Source: Dehalococcoidia bacterium
GTDB lineage: Bacteria; Chloroflexota; Dehalococcoidia; Plut-88900
Direction: 5' to 3'
NCBI GenBank assembly: GCA_965207225.1
Contig: CBDBLV010000004.1
Span: 512,001-576,000 of the forward strand
DNA: 64,000 nt
Shown here: one piece after another, positions 1-64,000 of the stretch
How the letters are laid out: each line of letters begins with the position of its first letter
Numbering within the stretch: position 1 is the first letter of the stretch
The notes under the pieces: model-generated
Told to the model about the DNA's origin: nothing
Seen by the model: the letters and a program-made list of their open reading frames with translations, nothing else
The model's database searches: none
Position numbers and translations under genes: made by a program

Positions 1-340
<340 letters not shown>

Positions 341-1001: not shown

Positions 1002-3059
1002 CTACCCCTCCAAAGACTCCGCCAATATCTCCACCAGGTCCTTCGCCTCCAGCTTCCCTTCCTGTTCCTTCACCCGGATCCCGTCCTCGAACATCTGCAG
1101 ACAGAACGGGCACGACGTCCCCACCACCTCCGCCCCCGTATCCAGCGCATGCTCCGTCCTCACGTGGTTGATCCTCTTCCCCTTGGACGACTCCTCGATC
1201 CACATATGACCGCCCCCCGCCCCGCAGCAGAACCCCCGACTCCGGTTCCTCGCCATCTCCAGAGTCTTGATCCCCGGGATCTTCTTCATCATTCTTCGAG
1301 GCTCTTCATAGACTCCGTTGTGCCGACCCAGGTAGCACGAATCATGGTAGGCGACCTTCTTGTCGATAGGCTTCTTCGCCTTTATCTTGCCCTGCTCCAT
1401 CAGCTGGTCGATGAACTGATTATGGTGCAGCACCTCGAACTCGCCCCCGAACTGCGGATACTCGTTTTTCAGCGTGTTGAAGCAGTGCGGGCATGCCGTG
1501 ACTATTCGGTTGATGCCGTGCTTCTTTAGCGTCTCGATGTTCTGCTCCGCCATCAGCTGGAACAGGTACTCGTTCCCCATTCGCCGTGCCGGGTCCCCGT
1601 TACACGTCTCCTCATCCCCAAGGATCGAGAAGTTCACCCCTGCCGTATTCATCACCGACGCCAATGATTTGGCTATCCCCTGGCTCCTCTCCTCCAGCGC
1701 AGGCGTACACCCGACCCAGAACAGCACGTCGGGGTGGGGATTATCTGAGATCAGCTTGACGTCCACGCCCTCCGTCCAGTCAGTCCGAGTGAACTTTGTG
1801 CCGGACCAGGGATGGCCTCGTGTCTCCATGCTTCGGAGGGCGGCCTGGCCGGTCTCGGGCATCTTGCCTTCTTCCAGCACCAGGTGCCGGCGCATGTCTA
1901 CTATGCTGTCTATGTGCTCGATGGCCACCGGGCATTCCTGCTCGCAGGCGCCGCAGGTAACGCAGTCCCAGATCGCCTCCTCGGACACGGCATGCCCGAT
2001 GACCGGTATCGACGAACCGTTCCCGTTCTCACCCTCGGCCTTGATAACCCCAGGCCCGACTTCAAGCAGGTGGTCCTTTATCCCCTCCACCACGTGCATC
2101 GGCGAAAGCACCTTGCCCGTCAGGTTAGCAGGGCAAGCGTCCGAGCATCGACCGCACACCGCACAGGCGTAGCCGTCCAGCAGCTCTTTCCATGTGAACT
2201 CGTTGACCAGGTTAGCCCCGAAGCTCTCCGCAGTCTCGATGTCCTTGATCGGGTGAAGGGTGCCTCTCGGGTTTACGTCGTGGAGGAATGCGTTGATTGG
2301 CGCCCCGATCATGTGCATGTGCTTGGAGAACGGAATGTACATGCTGAAGCCGATAATCAACGCCAGGTGAGCCCACCAGAAGATCCCGTGTAAGGTGTTC
2401 ACCACCCCGAAGCTCGCCCCGTCGAACAGCTTCCCGAGCAGTGTCCCTACCGGCGAGGCCGCATGCGGGCTCACTTCCGCCACCGCATCCTGGTTGACCA
2501 TTGCGTTATAGAAACCTTCAACCAGGAATGTGAGAATCATCAGGTTGGCTATTGCCGCGACGATGATTACTGCATCCGAACTCCGGGTCAGGTCGAAGCT
2601 CAACCGCCTTGGCTTCGCCAGCCACCGCCGCACCAGCGCCCAGGTAAGAGCCGTCAGAATCGCAAGCCCAAGGGCGTCCAACACGAACACGTATACCTTG
2701 ACCCCGGTGTCGGTCAGTATCGTCTCGGAGATGTGCGGGTTAATCGAGTCCAGGAACACGAAGAGCACGTAGCTCAGCGCGAAGCACAGGAATCCCCAGA
2801 ACACGAAAACGTGCCCGAGCCCGGCTTTGTCCTTCAACGATACCCTCTGGAGTACCTTCCTCTGGCCCAGCACCACCACCAGGGCGTTCATGCTTCTCTG
2901 GATCGGGTGGTCGAACCGGTTCTCCTTCTTACCCAGCATCACCAGGCGGAACACACGGGTGTAGACCACGTAGCCCGCAAACCCGAACCCAAGCACCGCA
3001 AATGCGAACACTCCGATCCAGAGCGGTATGAATCCAAAAATCTCGCCTGGTGGCACCAT
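1002..3059 (-). CDS. Membrane-bound Fe-S oxidoreductase, FadF/HdrD/GlpC-like (TM domain, 2x[4Fe-4S], CCG domains)
   Basis: N-terminal TM helices with ..PFSKHMH.., CAVCGRCSDACP, CVTCGACEQECP, TACPHC, YHDSCYLGR, FCCGAGGG, SCPFC. ATG at 3059 with AGGAGA SD. Confidence 0.85.
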   Translation of the reverse strand: MVPPGEIFGFIPLWIGVFAFAVLGFGFAGYVVYTRVFRLVMLGKKENRFDHPIQRSMNALVVVLGQRKVLQRVSLKDKAGLGHVFVFWGFLCFALSYVLFVFLDSINPHISETILTDTGVKVYVFVLDALGLAILTALTWALVRRWLAKPRRLSFDLTRSSDAVIIVAAIANLMILTFLVEGFYNAMVNQDAVAEVSPHAASPVGTLLGKLFDGASFGVVNTLHGIFWWAHLALIIGFSMYIPFSKHMHMIGAPINAFLHDVNPRGTLHPIKDIETAESFGANLVNEFTWKELLDGYACAVCGRCSDACPANLTGKVLSPMHVVEGIKDHLLEVGPGVIKAEGENGNGSSIPVIGHAVSEEAIWDCVTCGACEQECPVAIEHIDSIVDMRRHLVLEEGKMPETGQAALRSMETRGHPWSGTKFTRTDWTEGVDVKLISDNPHPDVLFWVGCTPALEERSQGIAKSLASVMNTAGVNFSILGDEETCNGDPARRMGNEYLFQLMAEQNIETLKKHGINRIVTACPHCFNTLKNEYPQFGGEFEVLHHNQFIDQLMEQGKIKAKKPIDKKVAYHDSCYLGRHNGVYEEPRRMMKKIPGIKTLEMARNRSRGFCCGAGGGHMWIEESSKGKRINHVRTEHALDTGAEVVGTSCPFCLQMFEDGIRVKEQEGKLEAKDLVEILAESLEG

Positions 3060-3194
3060 ATTTTTCGTGTCTCCTGAGGGGGAATTTACGAACGGAAACC
3101 GGGCCGCGAGTGTAGCACGCCCCAAACTCCGCCAACAAGCGAAGGGGCCGCACATGGCGGCCCCTTCTTGACTATCTTTCTTCTCGGAATATCC

Positions 3195-46158: not shown

Positions 46159-46243
46159 GCGGAAGTGTCGGAACCGGTAGACGAGCATGACTTAGGATCA
46201 TGTGCCTTCGGGCGTGTGGGTTCGAGTCCCACCTTCCGCACCA
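46159..46243 (+). tRNA. tRNA-Leu (anticodon TAG)
   Basis: Acceptor GCGGAAG/CTTCCGC-A-CCA, anticodon arm CATGA-CTTAGGA-TCATG, long variable arm, GGTTCGAGTCC T-loop. Confidence 0.96.
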
Positions 46244-51789: not shown

Positions 51790-52860
51790 TCATTCCTCCA
51801 CCGGCTCCACGAACGCCAGCGCCCGCTTCGGGTTGTCTATCAATATCCGCCAGATGTCCCTTTCATCAAATCCCTTGATACGCATCCTCGGCACCATGTA
51901 TTCCAGGAAGTAGCAATACCCGTGGCCCCCGTACTTCACCAGCCGGTTCTTCCGGGCTATGTCGTGCGAGACAAGCAGCTGACCCCCGTGCCCCTCGCTG
52001 ATGAGCCAGGCCAGCATGTTTAGCCTTTGTCCATCGTTGGGCATGTCGATGTGCGGCGCGGCCGGATAGAGCGAAGTCTCCTGCCCGAAGACGTCGTACT
52101 CCAGGAAGCATCCGGTCTCCGCAAGGTCTTTGAGTAGTTTCTTGTCGAAGATGGTCCTGTCCAGGTGGCCAACAATCACCCGCTTGGGGTCAGCCCCTGC
52201 TTCCAGCAGGATGGACATTATTTCCGCCGGGCTTGACTGGTCCCGACCCGGGTGTATCAGGATCGGAGCACCCGTTATCCTCTGGGCCCGGGCCGTGGCC
52301 CTCAGCACTTTCTGCTCGTTCGGGCGTAAGGGCCACGTGCACCCCACCTCCCCCATCACCCCCGACTTGATTCCCGTATTTCCCACACCTGTTAGGACAT
52401 CACTTACTATCTGATCGATGAGCGACTCCTCGCTTCTGTCATCCATGTCCGCGGGATGCGTCACCCCGACGTAGAACGACGACCCCATGATGATGTTCAC
52501 CCCCGTGGCCCGGGATATTCGCGTCAGGCCTATCGGGTCCCGACCCAGTCCCATGCTTGTGGCATCTACCAGCGCCGTGCCGCCGAACTGCTTGTAGAGG
52601 TTCACCTCTTCAATGATCGTAGGGATGTGGTCCAGCTTGGAGTTGTCTTTGTTTATCCCTCGACCGTGAAGCAGCCATCCTAGGATCTCGATGCTGAATG
52701 GGGCTTCCCACCTTGCCCTCTCACTCGCCTCCGTCGGCTCCTTGTACACCCCCACCGTCGAGACTAGCAGGTGTTCGTGGGTCATGGTGACCCCGAGATC
52801 ATCCGGGTCTATAGGCCCGAGTACCGTCTGCACCTTCCCGGCTAGGCTTTCACTATTCAT
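51790..52860 (-). CDS. Phosphotriesterase-family metallohydrolase (copy 1)
   Basis: THEH, GEVG, IHPG, GHLD, SHDI. Confidence 0.92.
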   Translation of the reverse strand: MNSESLAGKVQTVLGPIDPDDLGVTMTHEHLLVSTVGVYKEPTEASERARWEAPFSIEILGWLLHGRGINKDNSKLDHIPTIIEEVNLYKQFGGTALVDATSMGLGRDPIGLTRISRATGVNIIMGSSFYVGVTHPADMDDRSEESLIDQIVSDVLTGVGNTGIKSGVMGEVGCTWPLRPNEQKVLRATARAQRITGAPILIHPGRDQSSPAEIMSILLEAGADPKRVIVGHLDRTIFDKKLLKDLAETGCFLEYDVFGQETSLYPAAPHIDMPNDGQRLNMLAWLISEGHGGQLLVSHDIARKNRLVKYGGHGYCYFLEYMVPRMRIKGFDERDIWRILIDNPKRALAFVEPVEE

Positions 52861-52890
52861 GGATTGCCCTCAACGCGTACGCAATCGGCC

Positions 52891-53604
52891 CTAGTCCCTG
52901 ATGTTGAAGCCGCGATAGACCTCTGCGTATTTCAGACCCCTCGGCTTTCCGTTTTCGCTGCGCCATAGCCTCATGTATTTTTCGGCGTCCTCTGGCCTGA
53001 CCTGGCTTCTGTGTTGCTTCAGGGCCTCGATAGCCGTTTCAATGGTGTCCGATACATCAATGACTGTGTTGGCGTCGTCTCCCCGGTCCAACACCAGCAA
53101 CGTGGCAACCTTGTGTGGTTCGAATCCTTCATCCAGGAGCTCCGGGAACGTGAGCCGGTCCCGCGCCGCTGGGTACACCGCCGACAACGTCGCTTCTCCC
53201 ACCGCTATGTGGTCCGGATGCCCAATGTAGTCCCCGTGATCGAAGCTGCGTATCGGGCAGGGAGCGATCAGGATGTCGGGCCTGTGCCTTCTGATCTCCC
53301 TGGAAATGTCCTTTCGCAACTCAAGGGATGGGGTAAGCATCGCATCTTCATAGTCCAGGAAGATAACGTCTCGGACTCCGAGCACGACCGCTGCGTCCCT
53401 TTGCTCCTGCCTTCGCATTTCGGCAAGTTGCTGGTTGTTTATCTCCGGTACGTCGGTACCCTTGTTTCCGTTCGTGCATATCACGTAGACCACATCCATC
53501 CCCTCCCGACACCACTTCGCCACCGTCCCCGAGCATCCCCACTCCGCATCGTCGGGATGGGCCACTATCACCATCCCGCGCTGAGGCTTGATATCGTCTT
53601 CCAT
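52891..53604 (-). CDS. PIG-L/LmbE family deacetylase
   Basis: AHPDDAE, TNGNKG, RRQEQ, HPDH. Confidence 0.92.
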   Translation of the reverse strand: MEDDIKPQRGMVIVAHPDDAEWGCSGTVAKWCREGMDVVYVICTNGNKGTDVPEINNQQLAEMRRQEQRDAAVVLGVRDVIFLDYEDAMLTPSLELRKDISREIRRHRPDILIAPCPIRSFDHGDYIGHPDHIAVGEATLSAVYPAARDRLTFPELLDEGFEPHKVATLLVLDRGDDANTVIDVSDTIETAIEALKQHRSQVRPEDAEKYMRLWRSENGKPRGLKYAEVYRGFNIRD

Positions 53605-53655
53605 GCTCCTTGTACCTCTGTGTTCGATTAGTTGATTTGAAAGTAGGCCTTGACG

Positions 53656-54405
53656 TCAGCCGTACCGGTCTATCAGTTCACGGGTCAGGAGAGTCAGGCC
53701 GGAGATGATTATGACCGCAACCACCGCAAACCTCAACATCGACTCCCGCATCTTCCCCACCAACCGGGAAGCCACCCAGAACCCGACCAGCGTCGCCGGC
53801 AGCAGCATCAGGTTGAGCAGCCATCTCTCTCCCGTGTACACACCGAATATCACGTACAGCACGATCGCAAAGACCGCAACTGTCGAGTAGTAGACCGCTA
53901 TCGTCACCCGGATAGTCCGTGGCCCGTGACCCTGGTTGAAAAGGTGCCACGCCACAATCGGGATTCCGACCCCCAGTCCCGTTACCAGCGCCGCCCCGCT
54001 GAACCCGAAAACCGCATCCGAGATCTTGGACTTTGGTATCGGGACTCTCCTTCTCGCAAGGCTCACCACGGCCAACACTACTATCACCGCCCCAATGAGT
54101 ATCTTTAGGGCATCGGGTGCAAGGGTCTCCAGGACCAACAGACCCAGGGGTACCCCGCACAGCCCTGCGATCACCAGCGGCCGGGCCGTCTCCCCGGACA
54201 CCTCCTTCCTGTTGCGCACCCCGATCATCGCCAGCCCCACAAATGACAGGCTGTTGACTGCCAGTACTACCGGCTGCGGCTCCAGCACCAACAGAAGTAG
54301 CGGTGACAGCATCATCCCCATACCGAACCCCACCAGCCCCGCCACCACCGAGCTTGCAAACACCGCCGCCAGGGCGAAAGCAAGCTCTCCACCGGAAAGA
54401 AGCAT
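53656..54405 (-). CDS. Sulfite exporter TauE/SafE family protein
   Basis: GLVGFGMG..PLL, GVPLG, GVGIP, about 8 TM helices. Confidence 0.82.
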   Translation of the reverse strand: MLLSGGELAFALAAVFASSVVAGLVGFGMGMMLSPLLLLVLEPQPVVLAVNSLSFVGLAMIGVRNRKEVSGETARPLVIAGLCGVPLGLLVLETLAPDALKILIGAVIVVLAVVSLARRRVPIPKSKISDAVFGFSGAALVTGLGVGIPIVAWHLFNQGHGPRTIRVTIAVYYSTVAVFAIVLYVIFGVYTGERWLLNLMLLPATLVGFWVASRLVGKMRESMLRFAVVAVIIISGLTLLTRELIDRYG

Positions 54406-54480
54406 TATCCGGTGCTCTCCATCCCGACCGCTGGTTCTTCAGTTCCCACCCGACCCTCGTTCAGGTAGAATCCAACTACC

Positions 54481-55851
54481 ATGTCTATCCTTCTGACCGA
54501 AGCCACAATAGTCACCTCCAACCCAGACAGCGAAGTCCTGTACGACTCCTCCCTCGCGGTGGACAAGGGCCGCATCGCCGCCCTCGGCTCCACCACAGAT
54601 CTCCTCTCTCAATTCCCTGACGCAGAGCAAGTCAATTGTCGGGGCAAGACCATATTTCCAGGGCTGATAAACGCCCACACTCACCTCATGCGCACCGTGG
54701 GTCGGGGCATCCTGGAAGATACGGGTTACCCTAGCACTCTGCAACATCCTGAGGACATCCGGGACATCCTCACCCCCGACGAGACCCTGGCCATGACCAC
54801 CCTCGGGGCCCTGGAGTCTATCAAGAGCGGGGCCACCGCCGTGCTGGAAATAGGTCGGAACGTCGCATCCTATGCCCGCGCCCTTTCCAGCACGGGTCTG
54901 CGTCTGGTCCTCTCCGAAGTCATCGATGACCTGGACCCCGGGCCCGCCCGTCTGGGTAACTACGAGTATTCCGAAGAAAAAAGAGAATCCCGACTCGAAG
55001 TCGCCGAGGACCTGGTCAAGGAGTGGCACGGCGCCGCTTACGGACGAGTCACCTGTTTCCTCGCCCCCGGCACCCCCGAGTCCTGCTCCCCCCAAATGCT
55101 CCGCTCCGTAAGGGAGATGGCCGAGCGCTACCACATCGGCTACACCATCCACCTCTGCCAGAGCATGGTCGAGATGAATTCAATTTACCGCATCCACGGC
55201 ACCCGCCCTACCCACTACCTCTTTGCCAACGAGTTCCTCTCCCCCCGACTCCTCACAGCCCACAACCGCTACGTAGACCACTCCGAAATCGCAATGCTCG
55301 GCTGGGGCAAAGTGAACATCTCCAACAACCCGGCCATCGCCGCCCGACGCGGCACTGCCGCTCCCGTTCTCGAACTGGAAGCAGCGGGGTGCAACATCGC
55401 CATGGGCTCCGACAACATGACCCATGACATGGTCGAGGTCCTCCGTTCCGGCGTTTTCTACGAGAGGGTGCGGCGCAACTCCCAGATGCACCCCATCCCC
55501 GAGGACGTCCTCCAATGGGCAACCATGGGCTCGGCCCGTGCTCTCCGCATCGACGACAAGGTCGGGTCCCTGGAGCCGGGCAAGCACGCCGACCTCTTCA
55601 TCATCAACTCCTCCCGCGCCCATCTCGTCCCCAACCTCCGAATCGTCTCAGCCTTCGTCCATAACGGCCAGGCTGGCGACGTTGAGTCGGTCATGATAGA
55701 CGGCAAGTGGGTCATGCGCGACAGAGAAGTCCTCACCATCGACGAGCCTAGAGTCGTGGAAGCCGCCCAGGAAGTCGGGACCCGAGCCTGGCAAAAGCTC
55801 CTCGAACACTACCCCAACGTCCCCTTCCCCTTCACCCTCACCCCAAGCTAG
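54481..55851 (+). CDS. Metal-dependent amidohydrolase (SsnA/MTA-SAH deaminase-like)
   Basis: PGLINAHTH, IHLCQS, AHN, GSDN, GSLEPGKHAD, VMIDG. Confidence 0.88.
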   Translation: MSILLTEATIVTSNPDSEVLYDSSLAVDKGRIAALGSTTDLLSQFPDAEQVNCRGKTIFPGLINAHTHLMRTVGRGILEDTGYPSTLQHPEDIRDILTPDETLAMTTLGALESIKSGATAVLEIGRNVASYARALSSTGLRLVLSEVIDDLDPGPARLGNYEYSEEKRESRLEVAEDLVKEWHGAAYGRVTCFLAPGTPESCSPQMLRSVREMAERYHIGYTIHLCQSMVEMNSIYRIHGTRPTHYLFANEFLSPRLLTAHNRYVDHSEIAMLGWGKVNISNNPAIAARRGTAAPVLELEAAGCNIAMGSDNMTHDMVEVLRSGVFYERVRRNSQMHPIPEDVLQWATMGSARALRIDDKVGSLEPGKHADLFIINSSRAHLVPNLRIVSAFVHNGQAGDVESVMIDGKWVMRDREVLTIDEPRVVEAAQEVGTRAWQKLLEHYPNVPFPFTLTPS

Positions 55852-55891
55852 CGCTCAATTCTATGTTTGTCCCAAAGGGGGAAGGGGCATT

Positions 55892-55930
55892 CCGCTCGCC
55901 CTGAGCGAAGTCGAAGGGTCTCAAGAGCGG
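55892..55930. repeat. REP-like element, second copy of the 16168 family
   Basis: CCGCTCGCCCTGAGCGAAGTCGAAGGGTC..GAGCGG. First 14 nt are identical to 16168-16181. Confidence 0.6.
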
Positions 55931-56014
55931 CGTAGGGTAGGTGGGGCAGGGCGCAATCACACGCTATAATGCCTCCACCGCGAGCCCTCTCACCCGACCA
56001 AAAAGGAGGCCCTC

Positions 56015-57544
56015 ATGCGCGTAAGACCCCCGTCCCTCGACACCCTGGCCGCCATCGCCGAATCCTTCGGCATGGAACTCTCCGAGGAGGATCTGGATTC
56101 CTTTCACGGCCTGATCGCACCCATAATGGCCTCCTATGAACGGCTCGACCAGCTCCCCGAGCCTTCTCTCCCCGTCAAGTACCCCAGGACCCCCGGCCAC
56201 CGCCCCGCCGCCGAGGACAATCCCCTCAACGCCTGGTACTGGCGCAGCGAGATCAAGGGTGCATCAGAAGGCCCATTGGCCGGCAAGACCATTGCCATCA
56301 AGGACAACGTTTCCGTCGCCGGTGTTCCCATGATGAACGGCACTGCCATCCTGGAAGGCTACGTTCCCGACTCCGACGCCACAATCGTCACCCGAATCCT
56401 TGATGCCGGTGGCACTATTCTCGGCAAGGCCGTCTGTGAAAGTCTGTGCATATCCGGCGGAAGCCACACTTCGGACACCGGTCCCGTCCGCAACCCCTAC
56501 GACCCCACCCGCAGCGCCGGGGGCTCGTCCAGCGGCAGTGCTGCCCTGGTCGGTGCGGGCGATGTCGACATGGCCATTGGCGGTGACCAGGGAGGTTCCA
56601 TCCGCATCCCCGGCTGCTGGTGCGGGATCTACGGCCTCAAGCCCACCTACGGACTGGTCCCATACACCGGCATATTCCCTATTGAGATCACCCTTGACCA
56701 CACCGGCACTATGGCCCGCTCCGCTGCCGACTGTGCCCTCCTTCTGGAAGCCATCGCCGGCCCCGACGGCCTGGACCCCCGCCAGAATGCCAACCTCCAG
56801 CCCCAAGCCTACGCCCAGGCCCTTACTGGTGACATCTCGGGCCTACGCATCGGGGTGCTGGAGGAGGGTTTTGGAATAGACGGCCTTTCAGAAGAAGACG
56901 TCGATGAGTCGAACCGGGAGGCCGCCGCAGCCTTCGAAAAGCTAGGCGCGAGCGTCACCAGCGTTTCCGTACCCTGGCACAAGGACGGCGTCCATGTATG
57001 GAATGGTATCGGCATCGAGGGCTTGACCCTCCTCATGATCGCCGACAACGGCATGGGCACAAACTGGAAGGGCCACTACTCCACCTCCCTCCTCGACGCC
57101 TTCGCCCGAGGCCGCCGCACCCGCGCCAACGACTTTTCGGAAACCGTCAAGATGGTCATCCTCCTCGGCCAGTATCTCCACGACGACTATCACGGGCGCT
57201 ACTACGCCAAGGCCCAGAATTTAGGCCGTAGCCTGAAGGCCGCCTACGACCAGGCCTTTGAGGACGTTGACCTCCTGTTAATGCCCACCCTCCCACTCAA
57301 GGCCACCAGGATCCCGGGCCCCGACGCCTCCCGCGAAGAGTATGTCGCTAGAGCCTTGGAGATGATCCCCAACACCGCCCCCTTCGATATCACAGGGCAC
57401 CCTGCCATGACCGTACCCTGCGGCATGTCGGAGGGGCTGCCTGTGGGATTGATGCTGGTCGGGCGCACGGGAGAGGATGCCACTGTCTTACGCGCGGCCG
57501 ACGCCTTCCAGCGCAACATCTACTCCCCCGACTACCCATCCTGA
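56015..57544 (+). CDS. Amidase signature family amidase (CX3C subgroup)
   Basis: KDN, CESLC, GGSSSGS, GGDQGGSIRIP. AGGAGG SD. Confidence 0.93.
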   Translation: MRVRPPSLDTLAAIAESFGMELSEEDLDSFHGLIAPIMASYERLDQLPEPSLPVKYPRTPGHRPAAEDNPLNAWYWRSEIKGASEGPLAGKTIAIKDNVSVAGVPMMNGTAILEGYVPDSDATIVTRILDAGGTILGKAVCESLCISGGSHTSDTGPVRNPYDPTRSAGGSSSGSAALVGAGDVDMAIGGDQGGSIRIPGCWCGIYGLKPTYGLVPYTGIFPIEITLDHTGTMARSAADCALLLEAIAGPDGLDPRQNANLQPQAYAQALTGDISGLRIGVLEEGFGIDGLSEEDVDESNREAAAAFEKLGASVTSVSVPWHKDGVHVWNGIGIEGLTLLMIADNGMGTNWKGHYSTSLLDAFARGRRTRANDFSETVKMVILLGQYLHDDYHGRYYAKAQNLGRSLKAAYDQAFEDVDLLLMPTLPLKATRIPGPDASREEYVARALEMIPNTAPFDITGHPAMTVPCGMSEGLPVGLMLVGRTGEDATVLRAADAFQRNIYSPDYPS

Positions 57545-57586
57545 TACGGCCTCGTTTGCAGGCACACATGGCAAAGGAGCGGACCA

Positions 57587-58222
57587 GTGGAGATGAACGA
57601 AAGCCGCCGTCGACTCGCTGCAGCCTACGCCTTGGAGAGCGAGAGTCAGCTCCTGGAGCAATATGATTCCTGGGCCGACGTCTACGACGCCGATCTCGCA
57701 TCCTACGGATACCGCATGCCCCCGGTTGTTACCGGTCTGATAGTGAGACACATACCCGACACAAGCAGCCCAATATTGGATGCAGGGTCCGGTACAGGCA
57801 TTCTCGGGGAGGGTCTGCATGTCCTCGGCTACTCCAATGTCACCGCCCTGGACATATCCGAAGGCATGCTAAGGGTGGCCGCAAACAAGGGTATCTACCG
57901 CGCCACCCGGCAAATGGCCCTCGGCGAACACTTGGACTTCTCCGACGATTACTTTGCCTGTATCGCCGCAATGGGCGTTCTCACCGTCGGCCACGCGCCG
58001 CCCTCGTCCCTGGATGAGTTCGTGAGGGTTACCAGGCCCGGAGGCGTCATCATCTTCAGCATGCTCCACCAGGAACCGGTCGAGTCCGACTTTAGACGCA
58101 AACAGGACGACCTTGAGCACCGAGGCCTATGGCGGCTCGCCGAAGATACTTCTTACTTCCAAAGCCTCCCCTACGGCGAACCCGACGTCTCCCACAAAGT
58201 CTACGTCTACCGAGTCCTCTAG
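57587..58222 (+). CDS. Class I SAM-dependent methyltransferase
   Basis: YDSWADVYD, ILDAGSGTG, LDISEGML, RPGG. Confidence 0.88.
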   Translation: MEMNESRRRLAAAYALESESQLLEQYDSWADVYDADLASYGYRMPPVVTGLIVRHIPDTSSPILDAGSGTGILGEGLHVLGYSNVTALDISEGMLRVAANKGIYRATRQMALGEHLDFSDDYFACIAAMGVLTVGHAPPSSLDEFVRVTRPGGVIIFSMLHQEPVESDFRRKQDDLEHRGLWRLAEDTSYFQSLPYGEPDVSHKVYVYRVL

Positions 58223-58231
58223 GAGGGGCCT

Positions 58232-59224
58232 TCACCCCCCAAACACCGCATTCGCAAACCTCTCGATAATCTCCTCAAATGTTGGGTAAGGGCCCCCCGC
58301 CCCGGGCAGTGTAATCACAACCTCGCTGATCTCCGGCATCTCAGCTAGCGCAGCAACTTTCTCTCTGACCTCTCCGGCATCTCCTGCAACCGCAAACCTA
58401 TCTATGAATGAGCCGAGCCCTGGCACAGGAGGCATTTCTGCTCCTCCAAGGCTCGCAAAGTTGTAGTCCCTCCTGAACACTTCTATCGCCCGTTTGTCCT
58501 CCTCGCTGAACCGACTCTTGTCCACCATGTTCAGCATAGTCAGCACCCGACCCTGCACATGCGAACGCGCCACCGCCCCGTCCTTCGCCACCGACGTTAT
58601 CACCCACGCCGCTCTCTTCACCACACCCGACTCCCTCCCTGCCTCCGACTCCCCCTCGCTCACTAGATCCATACCGTCCTTCACCTGTGACGGCACCGCT
58701 CCGTAGTGAAGCAAAACGCCATCCGCCACCCGCCCCGCCGACTTCGTAATCCTCGGCCCGGACACCGCAAAATAAATCGGTATCCCTGTAGGCTTATCCA
58801 AGTACGAGATGCCACTGCTGACCCCCCTCCCGAACTCCACCTCCCCACCCGACAGCAGACCCCTCACCTTCCCCGTGTACGCCTCCAGCGATGCAATGGT
58901 TGACCTCTTAGCCCCGATGCTATTCACCAGCGTGTTCCCGACACTCATCCCCAGTATCAACCTGCCCTGAGCAATGTCATTCAGCGAAGCGAACGCCCCC
59001 GCCGTCACGCTGGCATGTCTTGTCCGGGGTGCCGTGACCCCTGCCGCCAATTTGATCCGGGACGTAGCCAGGGCGCAGGCCGTAAGCGTTACGTAAAGCT
59101 CCCGACACGTTAGCTGTGAGTCGATCATCCACGCGCTTTCGTAGCCCAGGTCTTCAGCCAGCTTCACCTGTTCCACCACCCGGGGCACGGGCAAATTACT
59201 CACGATGCCAACGCCGTATTTCAT
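58232..59224 (-). CDS. LLM-class oxidoreductase, Mer-like (probably F420-dependent)
   Basis: AEDLGYESAWMIDSQ, GVTAPRTRH, GRLILG, PIYFAVSGPR, VADGV. Confidence 0.88.
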   Translation of the reverse strand: MKYGVGIVSNLPVPRVVEQVKLAEDLGYESAWMIDSQLTCRELYVTLTACALATSRIKLAAGVTAPRTRHASVTAGAFASLNDIAQGRLILGMSVGNTLVNSIGAKRSTIASLEAYTGKVRGLLSGGEVEFGRGVSSGISYLDKPTGIPIYFAVSGPRITKSAGRVADGVLLHYGAVPSQVKDGMDLVSEGESEAGRESGVVKRAAWVITSVAKDGAVARSHVQGRVLTMLNMVDKSRFSEEDKRAIEVFRRDYNFASLGGAEMPPVPGLGSFIDRFAVAGDAGEVREKVAALAEMPEISEVVITLPGAGGPYPTFEEIIERFANAVFGG

Positions 59225-59332: not shown

Positions 59333-60445
59333 CTACATGTCCCGGTAGATCGCCAGCCCTTCCGTAAGCCTGTCGGTCCGGTCCAGCCCGACGTAACGCG
59401 CATTACCCAGATACGTCCGCACGAAGTCCCCCAGCAGGTTCCCGACCCGCCTCATCCCCGTCCTCACCCCCTCCACCCCGTGGCCCATGATCACACCCAG
59501 CGACTCCGGCAGCACCGGGTCTTTCAGGTCCCTAACCATCTGGGTCTCCGCAATGTCCAGGACTCTATGGAACACCCTCTCTTTCTTTGGCTGCTCCGAC
59601 AGCGAGTACTTGACGTGGGCCAGGCTGTAGGTCAGGTGTCTGGCCTTATCCTGAAGGCATCGCGCGAATATCGCCTTCTCTGCAGGATTGTGCGCAAACA
59701 TCTCTCCGTATCTGTAAAGCGTCTGCGTGAACGACCCCCTGAGAACGTGCAGGAACAGGCATGTCGAGGTCCAGTCGTTGTTGCTTTGCAGTATCACCCT
59801 GTCCACTTCAGCCCGGCTCTCGAGTCCCAGGCCCCCGCCGTTGCTCAGCGCCCGCTTCCTGAACGCGTCGAAGTGTCGGGCCGCATCGAAAACTTCTGAG
59901 GCTAGGAACACCTTCACCTCGTGGAAGCCGTAGGACATCTGCTGTATCCAGCCTGCCACGGTCTCGTATTCCACGTTGGCCTGCTGGCACAGCTCCGTGC
60001 ACAGCTGGCACATGGCGCGCTCAACGTCGTCCGGCAGCGGTTCAATAGTGTCCCAGGGAATGTCGGTAGCCGGCACCCATCGTTTCTGAATGGTCTCCTC
60101 GTACAGGTCGGCGGCGTTGTCAGCCCACAGTTCCCGCTTGTGCCTCAGGTTGATGTTGGCGATGAATGGGCGCTCTGCACTGGGATAGGCCCCGCGCAAA
60201 GCCCGAGTCCGGTCTTCGTGGTATTCCGGGATCTCGCCGTAGATCCCTACGTTCAGAGACCCGATCGTCATGCCCTTCTTGCCGGGCTTTACCCTTACTC
60301 CCCACTCCAGGTTGTGCTCCATCCAGTCAAGCGACAGTTGGGGAGTCTCGGACTCTTCTTCCTCCACTATCTCCTGCAGGATACGCTGGTGCCTCTTAAC
60401 ACCAGCTTTCTGTTGACCCTCGGTTCTTTCTTCGGATTTGGGCAT
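59333..60445 (-). CDS. Ferritin-like fold protein with a degenerate di-iron site (putative beta subunit)
   Basis: Collinear with 60526..61620 (ATDIPW..PLPDD.ERA, FRKRALSNGGGL) but DAARH and DKARH replace DExRH. Confidence 0.78.
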   Translation of the reverse strand: MPKSEERTEGQQKAGVKRHQRILQEIVEEEESETPQLSLDWMEHNLEWGVRVKPGKKGMTIGSLNVGIYGEIPEYHEDRTRALRGAYPSAERPFIANINLRHKRELWADNAADLYEETIQKRWVPATDIPWDTIEPLPDDVERAMCQLCTELCQQANVEYETVAGWIQQMSYGFHEVKVFLASEVFDAARHFDAFRKRALSNGGGLGLESRAEVDRVILQSNNDWTSTCLFLHVLRGSFTQTLYRYGEMFAHNPAEKAIFARCLQDKARHLTYSLAHVKYSLSEQPKKERVFHRVLDIAETQMVRDLKDPVLPESLGVIMGHGVEGVRTGMRRVGNLLGDFVRTYLGNARYVGLDRTDRLTEGLAIYRDM

Positions 60446-60525
60446 GTTTAGACAACCTGTGGTCTAGTTTGTGTCGCAGGTGCGGAGCGCCTGGCGCCCG
60501 ATTAGGACACCCGCGCCCGACGCTA

Positions 60526-61620
60526 TCAGTTGCGGAGCAGCTTCAGGACCTCGGGGTGCGCCCGGCCGTTCGTGAATCGCTCCTCGAACCCCGCCGACTT
60601 CACCCTCTGCACCCATTCCCTCATCTGGCGCCTGTTGATTGCCATCAGCAGACGCCATCCTTCGTCGATCTTGTCCTTGCCACCGCCCAAGAGTACCGCC
60701 ATCGAAGCCGTGCTCGACCTGTCCGTCCCCGCAGACCCGACCGCTGAGCCCGAGAACAGGTACTCTTCTCCCTCGTCCAGGTAGGTCTGGATCTCCTCCC
60801 GGCGCTCCGGCTCGGTCTGTCCAATGTAGCGCATGTGCATGATGCCAAAAGCCACGTGTCGGGACTCGTCCTGTGCCGCCAACCGGTATATCCGTTTTTC
60901 GGCTTCATTCTTGGCCAGCAGCTCACCGGTCCGGAAGATGGTCAGCACGGGCGACTCGCCTATGACGTGCACCCGGGCGGACATCTCCGAAAAGTCCCGT
61001 GCCATGTCGATGCTTACCACCCCGCCACCCATAGTATCCTCGGAGGAGCGCATCAGTCCGCCGCCGTTGGATAGTGCCCGCTTGCGGAACACGTCCAGGT
61101 GTCGGGCCTCATCCATCATCTGGGTCATCAGGAACATCCGGGTTTCCAGGTAGTCGGGGCTGATGGTGGCGACCCACCGTCCCGGGATGTCCGCGGCAAC
61201 GAACTCAATGTCGCTGAGGAAAGTCGTAAACTGGCATGCCGCCCGCTCGATGTCATCGGGAAGGGGTTCGATTGTCTCCCATGGAATGTCGGTAGCCGAG
61301 CTCCACTGCCTTTGCAGGGCCTCTTCGTACAGGCCGCCGGCGTTCCTCAGCCAGACGTCTTGCTTGGAGTTGACGTAGTAGGCGCCGCTCCGGTAGTTCC
61401 ACTCCCGCGCCGCCGACCCCCGCTGCCGCCCCGACCTTATGGAGCTGCTTTCGGGGGCATCTCCGTAGGACTCCATCTGGATATCTTCAAGGGTCAGCCC
61501 GTGCTTGCCCGGTTCGGCCTTCATTCCCCACTGACCCTTGGAGTCCATCCAGTCCAATGTGGGTTCGTAATGCTCGTCGTAAGCTACGCCCGGACCCGCA
61601 GAGATGGTGGTGTTCGGCAT
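60526..61620 (-). CDS. Ferritin-like di-iron carboxylate protein (putative alpha subunit)
   Basis: E(DIEF)..DEARH..E(IGES)..DESRH complete ligand pattern. AGGGAG SD. Confidence 0.85.
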   Translation of the reverse strand: MPNTTISAGPGVAYDEHYEPTLDWMDSKGQWGMKAEPGKHGLTLEDIQMESYGDAPESSSIRSGRQRGSAAREWNYRSGAYYVNSKQDVWLRNAGGLYEEALQRQWSSATDIPWETIEPLPDDIERAACQFTTFLSDIEFVAADIPGRWVATISPDYLETRMFLMTQMMDEARHLDVFRKRALSNGGGLMRSSEDTMGGGVVSIDMARDFSEMSARVHVIGESPVLTIFRTGELLAKNEAEKRIYRLAAQDESRHVAFGIMHMRYIGQTEPERREEIQTYLDEGEEYLFSGSAVGSAGTDRSSTASMAVLLGGGKDKIDEGWRLLMAINRRQMREWVQRVKSAGFEERFTNGRAHPEVLKLLRN

Positions 61621-61803
61621 GTCTTTACTCCCTGAATTCCACTACCCTATCCGAGACCAATGTACCACGCTCAATATACTTGCTGGCCTGAACTCGTGTC
61701 AAACCCGACGTTAGGCTCGATAAGCCTTTCATCCCCTCATGGTACAATCCACCCCTCCATCCCCTCTCGCCAAACCTGTGGATATGAAAGAGGAACCCGT
61801 GGC

Positions 61804-64000
61804 ATGACAACTACCTCCCCAATTTCCCTCAACGTCAATGGTTCGACCCATACCATCGACGCCCCGCCCGACAGCACTCTCCTCGAAGTCCTTAGAAACG
61901 ACCTCGATCTTATAGGCGCAAAGCAGGCCTGCGACGTTGGCGAGTGCGGCAGCTGCATAGTCATGTTCGGCGGCAAGGGCGTCATGTCTTGCCTTCTGCC
62001 CGCTCGTCGGGCACAAAACAAGCCCATCGTCACCATTGAGGGCCTCGCTGAATGGCACGCTGAATCCACTGAGACCTCAGACCCCCAGCCCGACTCCCTT
62101 CATCCACTTCAGCAGGCCTTCATAGACCTTGGCGCTTCCCAGTGCGGCTACTGCATACCGGGCATAATCATGGAGGCTTCGGCCCTTCTCGCGAAGAATC
62201 CCAACCCTACCCGTGAGGACGTGGTCAAGCGGCTGTCCCGGAACATCTGCCGGTGCACGGGCTACGTAAAAGTTGTCGAGGCAGTCCTCGGGGCTGCAGA
62301 AGCCATCCGTGATGGTACCCTGACCGCTAGAGAATTGACCAATGGCGGCTCCACTGTCGGCGCCAGCATCACCCGGCTCGACGATAGAGACAAGGTTACC
62401 GGCGTCGCCCGCTACGCCGCCGACCTCAAGATGCCCGGCGTCCTGTACGCAAAGGTCCTCCGCAGCAAGGTCCACCATGCCAACATCATTTCCATCGATA
62501 CCAGTGCCGCCGAGGCAGTCCCGGGCGTCGAGGCCATCGTCACCGCCAGGGATATTCCGGGAAGCCCCGTAATGATCAATGCCAAGCCCCAGAGATTCCT
62601 GTTCCCCAGCGACAAAATCAGGTTCATGGGCGAGGCCCTTGGCGCGGTAGCCGCTGACTCCGAAGAAGCCGCCGAAGAAGCCCTGTCGAAGATAGTAGTC
62701 GAATACGAGGAGCTTCCCCCAATACTCGATTTCCGCAAGGCCGATGACCCCGATGCACCGCTCATCAATCCCCCCGAACCCAACACGATATTCTCCAGAA
62801 GAGTGATTTCGGGAGACGCCAGTGCGGCCATGGAAAAGGCCGACGTTGTGGTGCGAAACACCTTCTCCAGCCCAAGATGGGAACACTTCTACATGGAGCC
62901 CGAGGCTGGTCTCGGCTATATCGATGAAGATGGCCGTATCTTCCTCAACTTCCCATCCCACGAGCCCTTTGAAGGACACGCCTTCATCGCCAGCCTTCTC
63001 GGCATCGACGAGGACCGCATCAGGATAGTCTGCCCGACCATGGGCGGAAACTTCGGAGGTCGGGAGGACTACGTCACGGCCGGAGTTATGGCCGTCCTCG
63101 TGCACAAGACTCGCAAGCCCGTGAGGGTGGTGTTGAGCCGGGAGGAGTCGTTGTTCGGTTCTTCCAAGTGGTTTGGCTTCCAAGTGGACTGCACCACCGG
63201 CGCAACCAGGGACGGAAAACTCGTCGCTGTTGACACCCAGGTCCTGGTCGACGGCGGCAACTGGAGCCACGAGCCCGGCCAAGAGATCAACGACTGCGTG
63301 GGCCGAAACTCCTACTTCCTCACCGGCCCCTACCTCGTCCCCGACGTCAAAATCGAGGTGATGGAGGCCTGCACCAACAGCGCCCGGGCCATCCCCATAC
63401 GCGGCATTACCAGCATCAACTCCGCCCTGGTCCACGAGACTCAGATGGACCTCCTCGCCGAGAAGCTGGGCATGGACAAGCTGGACTTCAGGATCAAAAA
63501 CGCCTTGGTGGCAGGCGACACCCTCCACACCGGCATGCTCCTTGAAGAGAGCGTGGAGGTAAAGGCCACCCTGGAGCAGTCCAGGAGGCCCTACGCCGAA
63601 GCCCGTGCCCGCACAGAGTCCGACCCACCTCCCGCACCATGGAAGCGGGGCATTGGCATCGGCACCGGATGGAGGGCCGTGGGTGTTGGGGGAAGGTACT
63701 TCTCTGCGGCGGAGCTGTTGGAATCGGGCAAGGTAAAGGTGTATCTCGGTGCGGTTGAAAAGGGCCAGGGGAGCAAGACTGCCATGGCCCAGATTGCCGC
63801 CGGAGAACTCGGGCTGCCACTGGACGCCATCGAGGTAGTGATGGGCGACACCATCGCCGCACCCTACCATCACATAACCGCATCCCAGGGCACTATAACC
63901 ATGGTCGGCGGGGCGCTCCACCAGGCCACGATAGCACTAAAGAAGGCGCTGGTAGAGGCCGCTTCGGAGATTCTTGAGGACTCTGCTGACAACATCGAAT
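61804..64000 (+). CDS. Xanthine/aldehyde oxidoreductase family molybdoenzyme, fused 2x[2Fe-2S] + molybdopterin domains (3'-partial, missing from the ORF track)
   Basis: CDVGECGSC..SC, QCGYC, NICRCTGY, DKVTG, HFYMEP, MGGNFGGR, EKGQG, GDT. Frame is open to the window end. Confidence 0.92.
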   Translation, partial: MTTTSPISLNVNGSTHTIDAPPDSTLLEVLRNDLDLIGAKQACDVGECGSCIVMFGGKGVMSCLLPARRAQNKPIVTIEGLAEWHAESTETSDPQPDSLHPLQQAFIDLGASQCGYCIPGIIMEASALLAKNPNPTREDVVKRLSRNICRCTGYVKVVEAVLGAAEAIRDGTLTARELTNGGSTVGASITRLDDRDKVTGVARYAADLKMPGVLYAKVLRSKVHHANIISIDTSAAEAVPGVEAIVTARDIPGSPVMINAKPQRFLFPSDKIRFMGEALGAVAADSEEAAEEALSKIVVEYEELPPILDFRKADDPDAPLINPPEPNTIFSRRVISGDASAAMEKADVVVRNTFSSPRWEHFYMEPEAGLGYIDEDGRIFLNFPSHEPFEGHAFIASLLGIDEDRIRIVCPTMGGNFGGREDYVTAGVMAVLVHKTRKPVRVVLSREESLFGSSKWFGFQVDCTTGATRDGKLVAVDTQVLVDGGNWSHEPGQEINDCVGRNSYFLTGPYLVPDVKIEVMEACTNSARAIPIRGITSINSALVHETQMDLLAEKLGMDKLDFRIKNALVAGDTLHTGMLLEESVEVKATLEQSRRPYAEARARTESDPPPAPWKRGIGIGTGWRAVGVGGRYFSAAELLESGKVKVYLGAVEKGQGSKTAMAQIAAGELGLPLDAIEVVMGDTIAAPYHHITASQGTITMVGGALHQATIALKKALVEAASEILEDSADNIE

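Follow-up and report, generated by a model that had tools for sequence, protein, structure and literature searches.

An intact and a degenerate ferritin-fold paralogue encoded side by side in Dehalococcoidia: a candidate two-subunit dinuclear-metal oxidase or oxygenase

Paralogous subunits of ferritin-like fold, one catalytic and the other structural, make up the alpha-beta pairs of soluble methane monooxygenase (sMMO), toluene/o-xylene monooxygenase (ToMO) and phenol hydroxylase, as well as the PaaA/PaaC pair. A related arrangement exists in yeast, where Rnr4, which lacks several iron ligands, helps Rnr2 to fold and to load its cofactor. The two form the R2 component of ribonucleotide reductase (RNR), a heterodimer of an active subunit and its paralogue (PMC4245953). 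Other proteins of the R2 type are VlmB, a diiron azoxy synthase, the substrates of which are aliphatic (PMC11705231), and R2lox, which carries a Val-Tyr ether cross-link (PMC6060897). Here we analyze a 64,000-nucleotide stretch (the window) from a Dehalococcoidia bacterium, positions 512,001 to 576,000 of contig CBDBLV010000004.1 in assembly GCA_965207225.1, in which two adjacent genes, called A and B below, encode paralogous R2-like proteins. A carries a complete set of dinuclear-metal ligands and B has lost all four of the glutamates. By analogy with the yeast heterodimer, and given the joint inheritance of the two genes, we consider it probable that A is the catalytic and B the non-catalytic subunit of an R2-type heterodimer, constituting an uncharacterized dinuclear-metal oxidase or oxygenase.

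Gene A lies upstream of B, and the two open reading frames (ORFs) run in the same direction with 80 bp between them (coordinates are collected in Table 1). The proteins share 111 of 336 positions in a BLASTP comparison (33% identity, E 8e-65), and their alignment contains the common stretches LYEE..W..ATDIPW.TIEPLPDD.ERA.CQ and FRKRALSNGGGL. In A, the motifs SDIEF, MDEARH, VIGES and QDESRH hold the ligands E139, E171, H174, E222, E252 and H255, that is, the full E / ExxH / E / ExxH set of dinuclear carboxylate proteins, through which A presumably binds metal. The same alignment columns in B fall in QQANV, FDAARH, VLRGS and QDKARH and read A, A, H, G, K, H, the four glutamates being replaced by A156, A188, G237 and K267 and the histidines being retained as H191 and H270. 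A preliminary description of this stretch, made from the letters alone, had reported two adjacent, co-directional and closely alignable ORFs with these motifs, and both their limits and the ligand assignments proved exact. A and B are the sole members of the A/B family in the source genome. Three further traits characterize the family: an N-terminal region of about 100 residues (WM..W..PGK.G.T...YG), conserved in both paralogues and modelled by AlphaFold with low confidence; a basic, glycine-rich loop, FRKRALxNGGGL, common to A and B; and His218 of A, which lies one helical turn (four residues) before E222 and is invariant in the best 120 A homologues.

Homologue searches (E up to 1e-3) returned 1581 proteins for A and 2105 for B, and ligand positions were scored in the best 120 matches of each set. 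The pattern EEHEEH was present in all 120 A homologues, while none of the 120 B homologues retained any of the four glutamates and 96 of them read AAHGKH. Residues Arg236, Lys267 and Glu159 of B are likewise conserved: an arginine occupies the column before the lost third glutamate in 119 of the 120 B homologues, lysine replaces the fourth glutamate in most, and an acidic residue is found three positions past the lost first glutamate in 118. The gained Lys/Arg and offset acidic residues pointed out in the preliminary description are thus a real family trait, and to judge from sequence they could form salt bridges within the former metal site. Its statement that both histidines are retained has to be qualified, since this holds for most B-type proteins but not for all, and of its two expectations for other genomes, the same A/A/G/K substitutions and constant adjacency of the pair, the first was largely borne out and the second was not. 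None of the 240 listed A and B matches carried a precomputed Pfam domain, and their names went no further than 'hypothetical' or 'ferritin-like domain-containing'.

Selection and phylogeny were analyzed with a set of related loci. In seven within-clade comparisons A gave dN/dS ratios of 0.015-0.055 and B of 0.033-0.047, as against 0.09-0.32 for a neighbouring luciferase-like (LLM) gene in the same comparisons (locus L007, whose A gene is of different length, was excluded). Of the 47 aligned rows of the locus set, 25 have the full ligand series and 22 the degenerate one, and a full copy invariably precedes a degenerate copy. After removal of 15 near-duplicates, the remaining 32 rows were placed in a quick maximum-likelihood tree, in which a single branch (SH-aLRT 100) splits full from degenerate copies, and both halves show the same branching order, with a gammaproteobacterial group nested among Dehalococcoidia in each. 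The mirrored halves are consistent with one old duplication followed by joint inheritance and joint transfer of both genes. Taken together, the abundance of homologues, the fixed substitutions, the purifying selection and the tree indicate that B is an old, selected gene and not a decaying duplicate. Homologues of a drifting copy, the possibility that the preliminary description had set against its own proposal, should be rare, variable or unlinked; those of B are many, share one pattern, are under purifying selection and follow A in 24 of the 33 related loci that we examined in species-representative genomes, so that this possibility largely falls away and a conserved pair of intact and degenerate ferritin-fold paralogues is supported.

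AlphaFold2 models of A and B (mean pLDDT 77 and 78, respectively) are confident in the helical core. When the model of A was compared with known structures in a wide structural search (scores in Z units), the best match was the VlmB homologue 6d9f from Kitasatospora (23.7; rmsd 2.6 over 255 aligned residues), followed by VlmB itself (8wvr, 23.3), R2lox (21.4-22.1), RNR R2 (21.5-21.7) and aldehyde-deformylating oxygenase (ADO, 20.6-21.6). The beta subunits of ToMO and phenol hydroxylase scored 18.9-19.3, sMMO alpha and beta 18.2-18.3, PaaC 16.2, BoxB 15.6, acyl-ACP desaturase 15.5, and AurF and CmlI 14.1. B retains the fold, matching ADO at 24.1, 6d9f at 23.6 and R2lox at 21.5. Judged from the models, the nearest folds of A and B are therefore those of the R2 type (VlmB homologue, R2lox, RNR R2) and of ADO; the PaaA, BoxB, AurF, CmlI and desaturase folds were all matched, but well below the R2-type ones, and were rejected. 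At the level of sequence, a Pfam scan of A and B gave no usable match, phmmer of B against the PDB returned chance matches only, and the best PDB profile match of A was the VlmB homologue (E 1e-4). The best NCBIfam R2lox model, NF006200, scored 40.8 bits with A, against a cutoff of 194, and 11.9 bits with B. These values agree with the earlier view that the pair corresponds to no characterized enzyme.

The model put forward in the preliminary description, that of the bacterial multicomponent monooxygenases (BMM) and PaaA/PaaC, fares less well. It would make A and B the alpha and beta subunits of a hydroxylase whose coupling protein and NADH reductase are encoded elsewhere, and it can draw on the fact that those enzymes, too, pair a catalytic with a structural paralogue of ferritin-like fold. 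The BMM and Paa structures, however, match 2-7 Z units below the VlmB homologue, RNR R2 and R2lox and 1-4 below ADO, and A has 364 residues against 511 in the matched sMMO alpha chain. No gene for a coupling protein, Rieske protein, ferredoxin reductase or PaaB/D/E lies in the window, and none recurs at the 14 loci whose flanks were scanned, a P450 together with a Rieske protein having been found once (L019). The accessory genes that are conserved (see below) differ in kind from those of BMM and Paa systems. Neither the similarity nor the other Paa subunits that mark a phenylacetyl-CoA epoxidase of the PaaA/PaaC kind were found, and the Pfam AurF model (PF11583) did not place the pair with the AurF/CmlI N-oxygenases. 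We therefore regard membership in the BMM or Paa type as highly improbable, and an R2-type dimer with one dead subunit offers the better analogy.

The 24 loci where B follows A in the same orientation belong to Dehalococcoidia, other Chloroflexota and Gammaproteobacteria, and three others have a B-type gene without A. Clustering of the flanking ORFs revealed two genes that recur after B, one for a small protein of about 150 aa beginning FPSVEWF and one for a ribbon protein of about 100 aa beginning MPIYEYRC; one or both follow B in 13 of the 33 loci. Four gammaproteobacterial loci have the order A-B-small-small-ribbon, and five from marine Dehalococcoidia have A-B-ribbon-small; a further locus reads A-B-small and three read B-small, whereas the eight loci closest to the window read A-B-luciferase-like. 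In a sister-genus genome A-B-small-ribbon is contiguous, and in the source genome the small protein is directly followed by the ribbon on another contig (C3), with a second small protein on C5. The earlier remark that no accessory gene adjoins the pair is thus correct for the window but not for the system as a whole. A wider sample of 151 Dehalococcoidia genomes contained the A/B family in 49, with up to 10 copies per genome. The small protein was present in 41 genomes, 40 of which also have the family, and it was absent from nine family-positive genomes, whose family member is in most cases a distant one. The 150 listed matches, out of 177, include 79 high-scoring A-type genes; 48 of these are followed on their own strand, within 1.5 kb, by another member of the family. 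As for the 60 small-protein genes, 23 come directly after a B-type gene, which is itself preceded by A in 8 cases and lacks it in 15, and 37 are located elsewhere; none of the 60 directly follows an A-type gene, which ties the small protein to B and not to A. A-B pairing is accordingly common, yet not obligatory as a gene order, and the adjacency first described for the window, although it recurs widely, coexists with lone A-type genes and with many cases of B plus small protein without A. One contig (C6 of genome G123; L040, 3822-8225, minus strand) carries an A-A-B-small array in which both A proteins read EEHEEH and B reads AAHNTQ, implying further tandem duplication of the family in some genomes.

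The ribbon is an FmdB-type zinc ribbon with four cysteines, above the cutoffs of both Pfam Zn_ribbon_8 (40.4-44.8 bits against 34.4) and NCBIfam TIGR02605 (42.1 bits against 31.3 for the copy of the source genome). The small protein could be assigned to no family, and the leads that point to SCP2 lipid carriers are weak. In the source genome its second copy (L036, C5, 1507-3017, minus strand) lies directly downstream of a gene for a 361-aa protein, which by sequence resemblance begins like Amidohydro_2-type amidohydrolases and was matched by no NCBIfam model; an Amidohydro_2 gene also adjoins the pair in L011. Given these neighbours, the small protein may serve more than one kind of enzyme.

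In the heterodimer that we favour, A would activate O2 at a carboxylate-bridged site, Fe/Fe or Mn/Fe, within its four-helix bundle. B, descended from a common ancestor with A, would have had its metal site replaced by the conserved network of Arg/Lys and Asp/Glu residues, and would pair with A at the interface through which R2-type proteins usually dimerize, giving one active site per heterodimer. The pair would form the core of a cassette that is completed in relatives by one or two small SCP2-like proteins and the FmdB-type ribbon. The former probably carry a hydrophobic substrate, and the latter may be structural or act as a rubredoxin-like electron carrier. In the source genus, this tail would have moved to another contig, with an F420-type luciferase-like oxidoreductase following B instead. 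Several observations weigh against this proposal. The contact between A and B is proposed from co-inheritance and analogy, and the first 75 or so residues are of low confidence in both models. A stands alone in six of the 33 loci (in two cases the contig breaks off no more than 350 bp from A), and 31 of the 79 A-type genes, among the same listed matches, have no family member within 1.5 kb downstream. The 15 small-protein genes that follow an A-less B suggest that B may act together with the small protein independently of A. Assignment of the small protein to SCP2 is itself weak: its best PDB profile match is a Thermus SCP2 (2cx7) at E 0.16, SCP2 is annotated on 13% of the members in one Atlas neighbour cluster, and Pfam SCP2 (PF02036) matches none of 13 small-protein members at E up to 10. 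Finally, no conserved reductase or ferredoxin gene was found beside the cassette, either in the window or in the flanks of 14 loci.

Some of these observations would also fit if B were not a subunit of A at all, but a metal-free ligand-binding or carrier protein working with the small SCP2-like protein and adjoining A through a common pathway. The position of the small-protein gene, which in 151 genomes follows B-type genes with or without A and never A-type ones, speaks for such a role, as do loci L032, L033, L035 and L039, where a B-type gene and the small protein occur and A is not within the DNA examined. An anionic head group, moreover, could be bound by the conserved Arg and Lys that B has where its metal site used to be. 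Yet the branching of A in the tree matches that of B and A precedes B at most loci, R2-type proteins are dimeric and B retains the whole fold, and in the source genome B adjoins A and not the small protein. Many of the B-only contigs are also short, so that A may lie past their ends. A carrier role of B apart from A, the main rival to our reading, thus appears unlikely, though it deserves to be kept in view, and we continue to prefer the heterodimer of A and B.

As to what such a heterodimer would act on, R2lox tends to bind lipids, and this, the lipid-carrier-like character of the small protein and the aliphatic substrates of VlmB and ADO suggest that the substrate is probably hydrophobic and aliphatic, although the substrate class is much less certain than the roles of A and B. 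A more detailed scheme, which we offer as a conjecture and think rather improbable as a whole, is that the Arg/Lys-lined former metal pocket of B docks the anionic head of a lipid-like substrate received from the SCP2-like protein. Together, B and the small protein would deliver this substrate to one or several A-type subunits, even ones encoded elsewhere, and the ribbon would bind iron and feed electrons in the manner of a rubredoxin.

The surroundings of the pair in the window (Table 1) are little conserved. The best NCBIfam matches of the LLM gene downstream of B are F420-type, every one below its cutoff, and eight of the 33 loci, the near-identical L003-L010, have this gene after B, which the remaining 25 do not. 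We therefore rejected it as a core component. It is possibly a co-transcribed neighbour outside the conserved core, and an F420-type LLM enzyme may act on the substrate of the A/B pair. No terminator-like site was found on the minus strand between A, B and the LLM gene. A GGGAG Shine-Dalgarno-like motif precedes the start codon of A, and a sigma-70-like promoter match lies further upstream; the latter is a consensus match and weak evidence, since two such matches occur in the region where 1.7 are expected in shuffles. The listed ATG of the divergent 2Fe-2S/molybdopterin gene overlaps this promoter-like site; translation probably begins later, at a Met that precedes TTTSPISL about 47 codons into the frame. 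This fusion protein was considered as an electron partner and rejected, as it accompanies the pair only in L003-L010. None of the genes of the mixed hydrolase island recurs beside the pair in distant relatives. Among 121 flanking ORFs from the 14 loci, no conserved reductase, ferredoxin, regulator or transporter recurs; the flanks contain amidohydrolases, acyl-CoA dehydrogenases, PhyH dioxygenases and metallo-beta-lactamase-fold proteins. ORFs in these flanks were picked greedily, a procedure that may favour antisense frames in GC-rich DNA, and some true genes were possibly missed. At the far end of the window lies the end of a 16S rRNA gene, which appears to be unlinked from 23S, given that no 23S match occurs in the 64 kb and that long ORFs on both strands fill positions 1002-3155.

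Table 1. Features of the 64,000-nucleotide window, with positions counted from its first nucleotide.
Feature	Position	Strand	Remarks
Gene A	60526-61620	-	364-aa R2-like ferritin-fold protein; presumed catalytic subunit
Gene B	59333-60445	-	370-aa paralogue of A; presumed non-catalytic partner subunit
Luciferase-like (LLM) oxidoreductase gene	58232-59224	-	108 bp downstream of B; Pfam Bac_luciferase, E 1.7e-43
Sigma-70-like promoter match	61673-61702	-	TTGACA, 18 nt, TATATT; 11/12; upstream of A
2Fe-2S (Fer2, Fer2_2) and aldehyde oxidase/xanthine dehydrogenase molybdopterin fusion gene	61660-63999	+	Divergent from A; runs past the window end
Mixed hydrolase island	51790-58222		Phosphotriesterase family, PIG-L deacetylase family, TauE/SafE exporter, amidohydrolase, amidase, class I methyltransferase
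16S rRNA gene, last 334 positions	1-337	+	Bacterial; Rfam, 324.5 bits
tRNA-Leu gene	46159-46243	+	Anticodon TAG; single tRNA gene of the window

The A/B family is widespread in marine and soil bacteria, including marine Gammaproteobacteria, and a profile search (E up to 1e-3) yielded 876 family representatives at 50% clustering. It has neither a Pfam family nor a name, and a literature search that was short on subscription journals turned up no paper on it. What is new here is an R2-like dinuclear-metal family with a fixed degenerate partner and accessory proteins of its own. The lineages that bear the family are thought to oxidize hard-to-degrade organic matter, which makes a common, unstudied O2-activating enzyme a good target in the search for new chemistry. 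Should the conjectured substrate-docking role of B hold true, abundant marine Chloroflexota and Gammaproteobacteria would have in this system a new, self-contained type of dinuclear-metal oxygenase that needs neither a coupling protein nor a flavoprotein reductase.

When compared with its nearest structural relatives one by one, A shows both likenesses and differences. The likeness to R2lox (4hr0, 3ee4, 7qbp) in R2-type fold holds for A, and the ligand series of R2lox, E, ExxH, E, ExxH with glutamate first, is found in A and its best 120 homologues but not in B. With E139 set against E69 of R2lox, however, the cross-link residue Val72 corresponds to Ala142 of A, which is invariant in the same 120 homologues; this register, which covers the valine half of the cross-link, was taken from mutant names in PDB titles and a HMMER alignment. 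To our knowledge, R2lox has no degenerate partner gene. VlmB and its Kitasatospora homologue are about 20% identical to A (profile E 1e-4 for the homologue), and no degenerate partner subunit is described in the part of the VlmB source that we consulted. VlmB belongs to an antibiotic gene cluster, where it acts after VlmO, a hydrazine synthase of the membrane. Around A and B, neither the window nor the flanks of the 14 loci showed a membrane partner that recurs, in a scan that included no VlmO model. The A/B family differs from VlmB also in its extra conserved N-terminal region of about 100 residues and in its SCP2-like and zinc-ribbon neighbours.

The high structural scores with RNR R2 raise the question of whether A could be a radical-generating or metal-handling protein (R2-like, a ferroxidase or a metal store) rather than one that oxidizes a substrate. 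In E. coli R2 the radical tyrosine is located four residues after the first histidine ligand, and at that position A has Phe178; phenylalanine also occupies it in all of the best 120 A homologues and in 119 of the 120 B homologues. The scanned flanks and the neighbourhood in the window contain no RNR large-subunit domain, and the genes that do recur beside the pair encode a lipid-carrier-like protein and a zinc ribbon, so that we give this alternative very little weight. The invariant alanine at the cross-link valine and the invariant phenylalanine at the radical tyrosine argue against placing A in the known R2lox and RNR R2 families. The closest precedent for the architecture proposed here is the yeast Rnr2-Rnr4 heterodimer, the likeness being one of design and not of membership, since the yeast protein serves to generate a tyrosyl radical for nucleotide reduction and A has phenylalanine at the radical position. 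If A and B do associate as proposed, their pairing of a live with a dead subunit would be a bacterial counterpart to the Rnr2-Rnr4 design, and a clean system in which to ask why a metal-free ferritin-fold subunit is retained.

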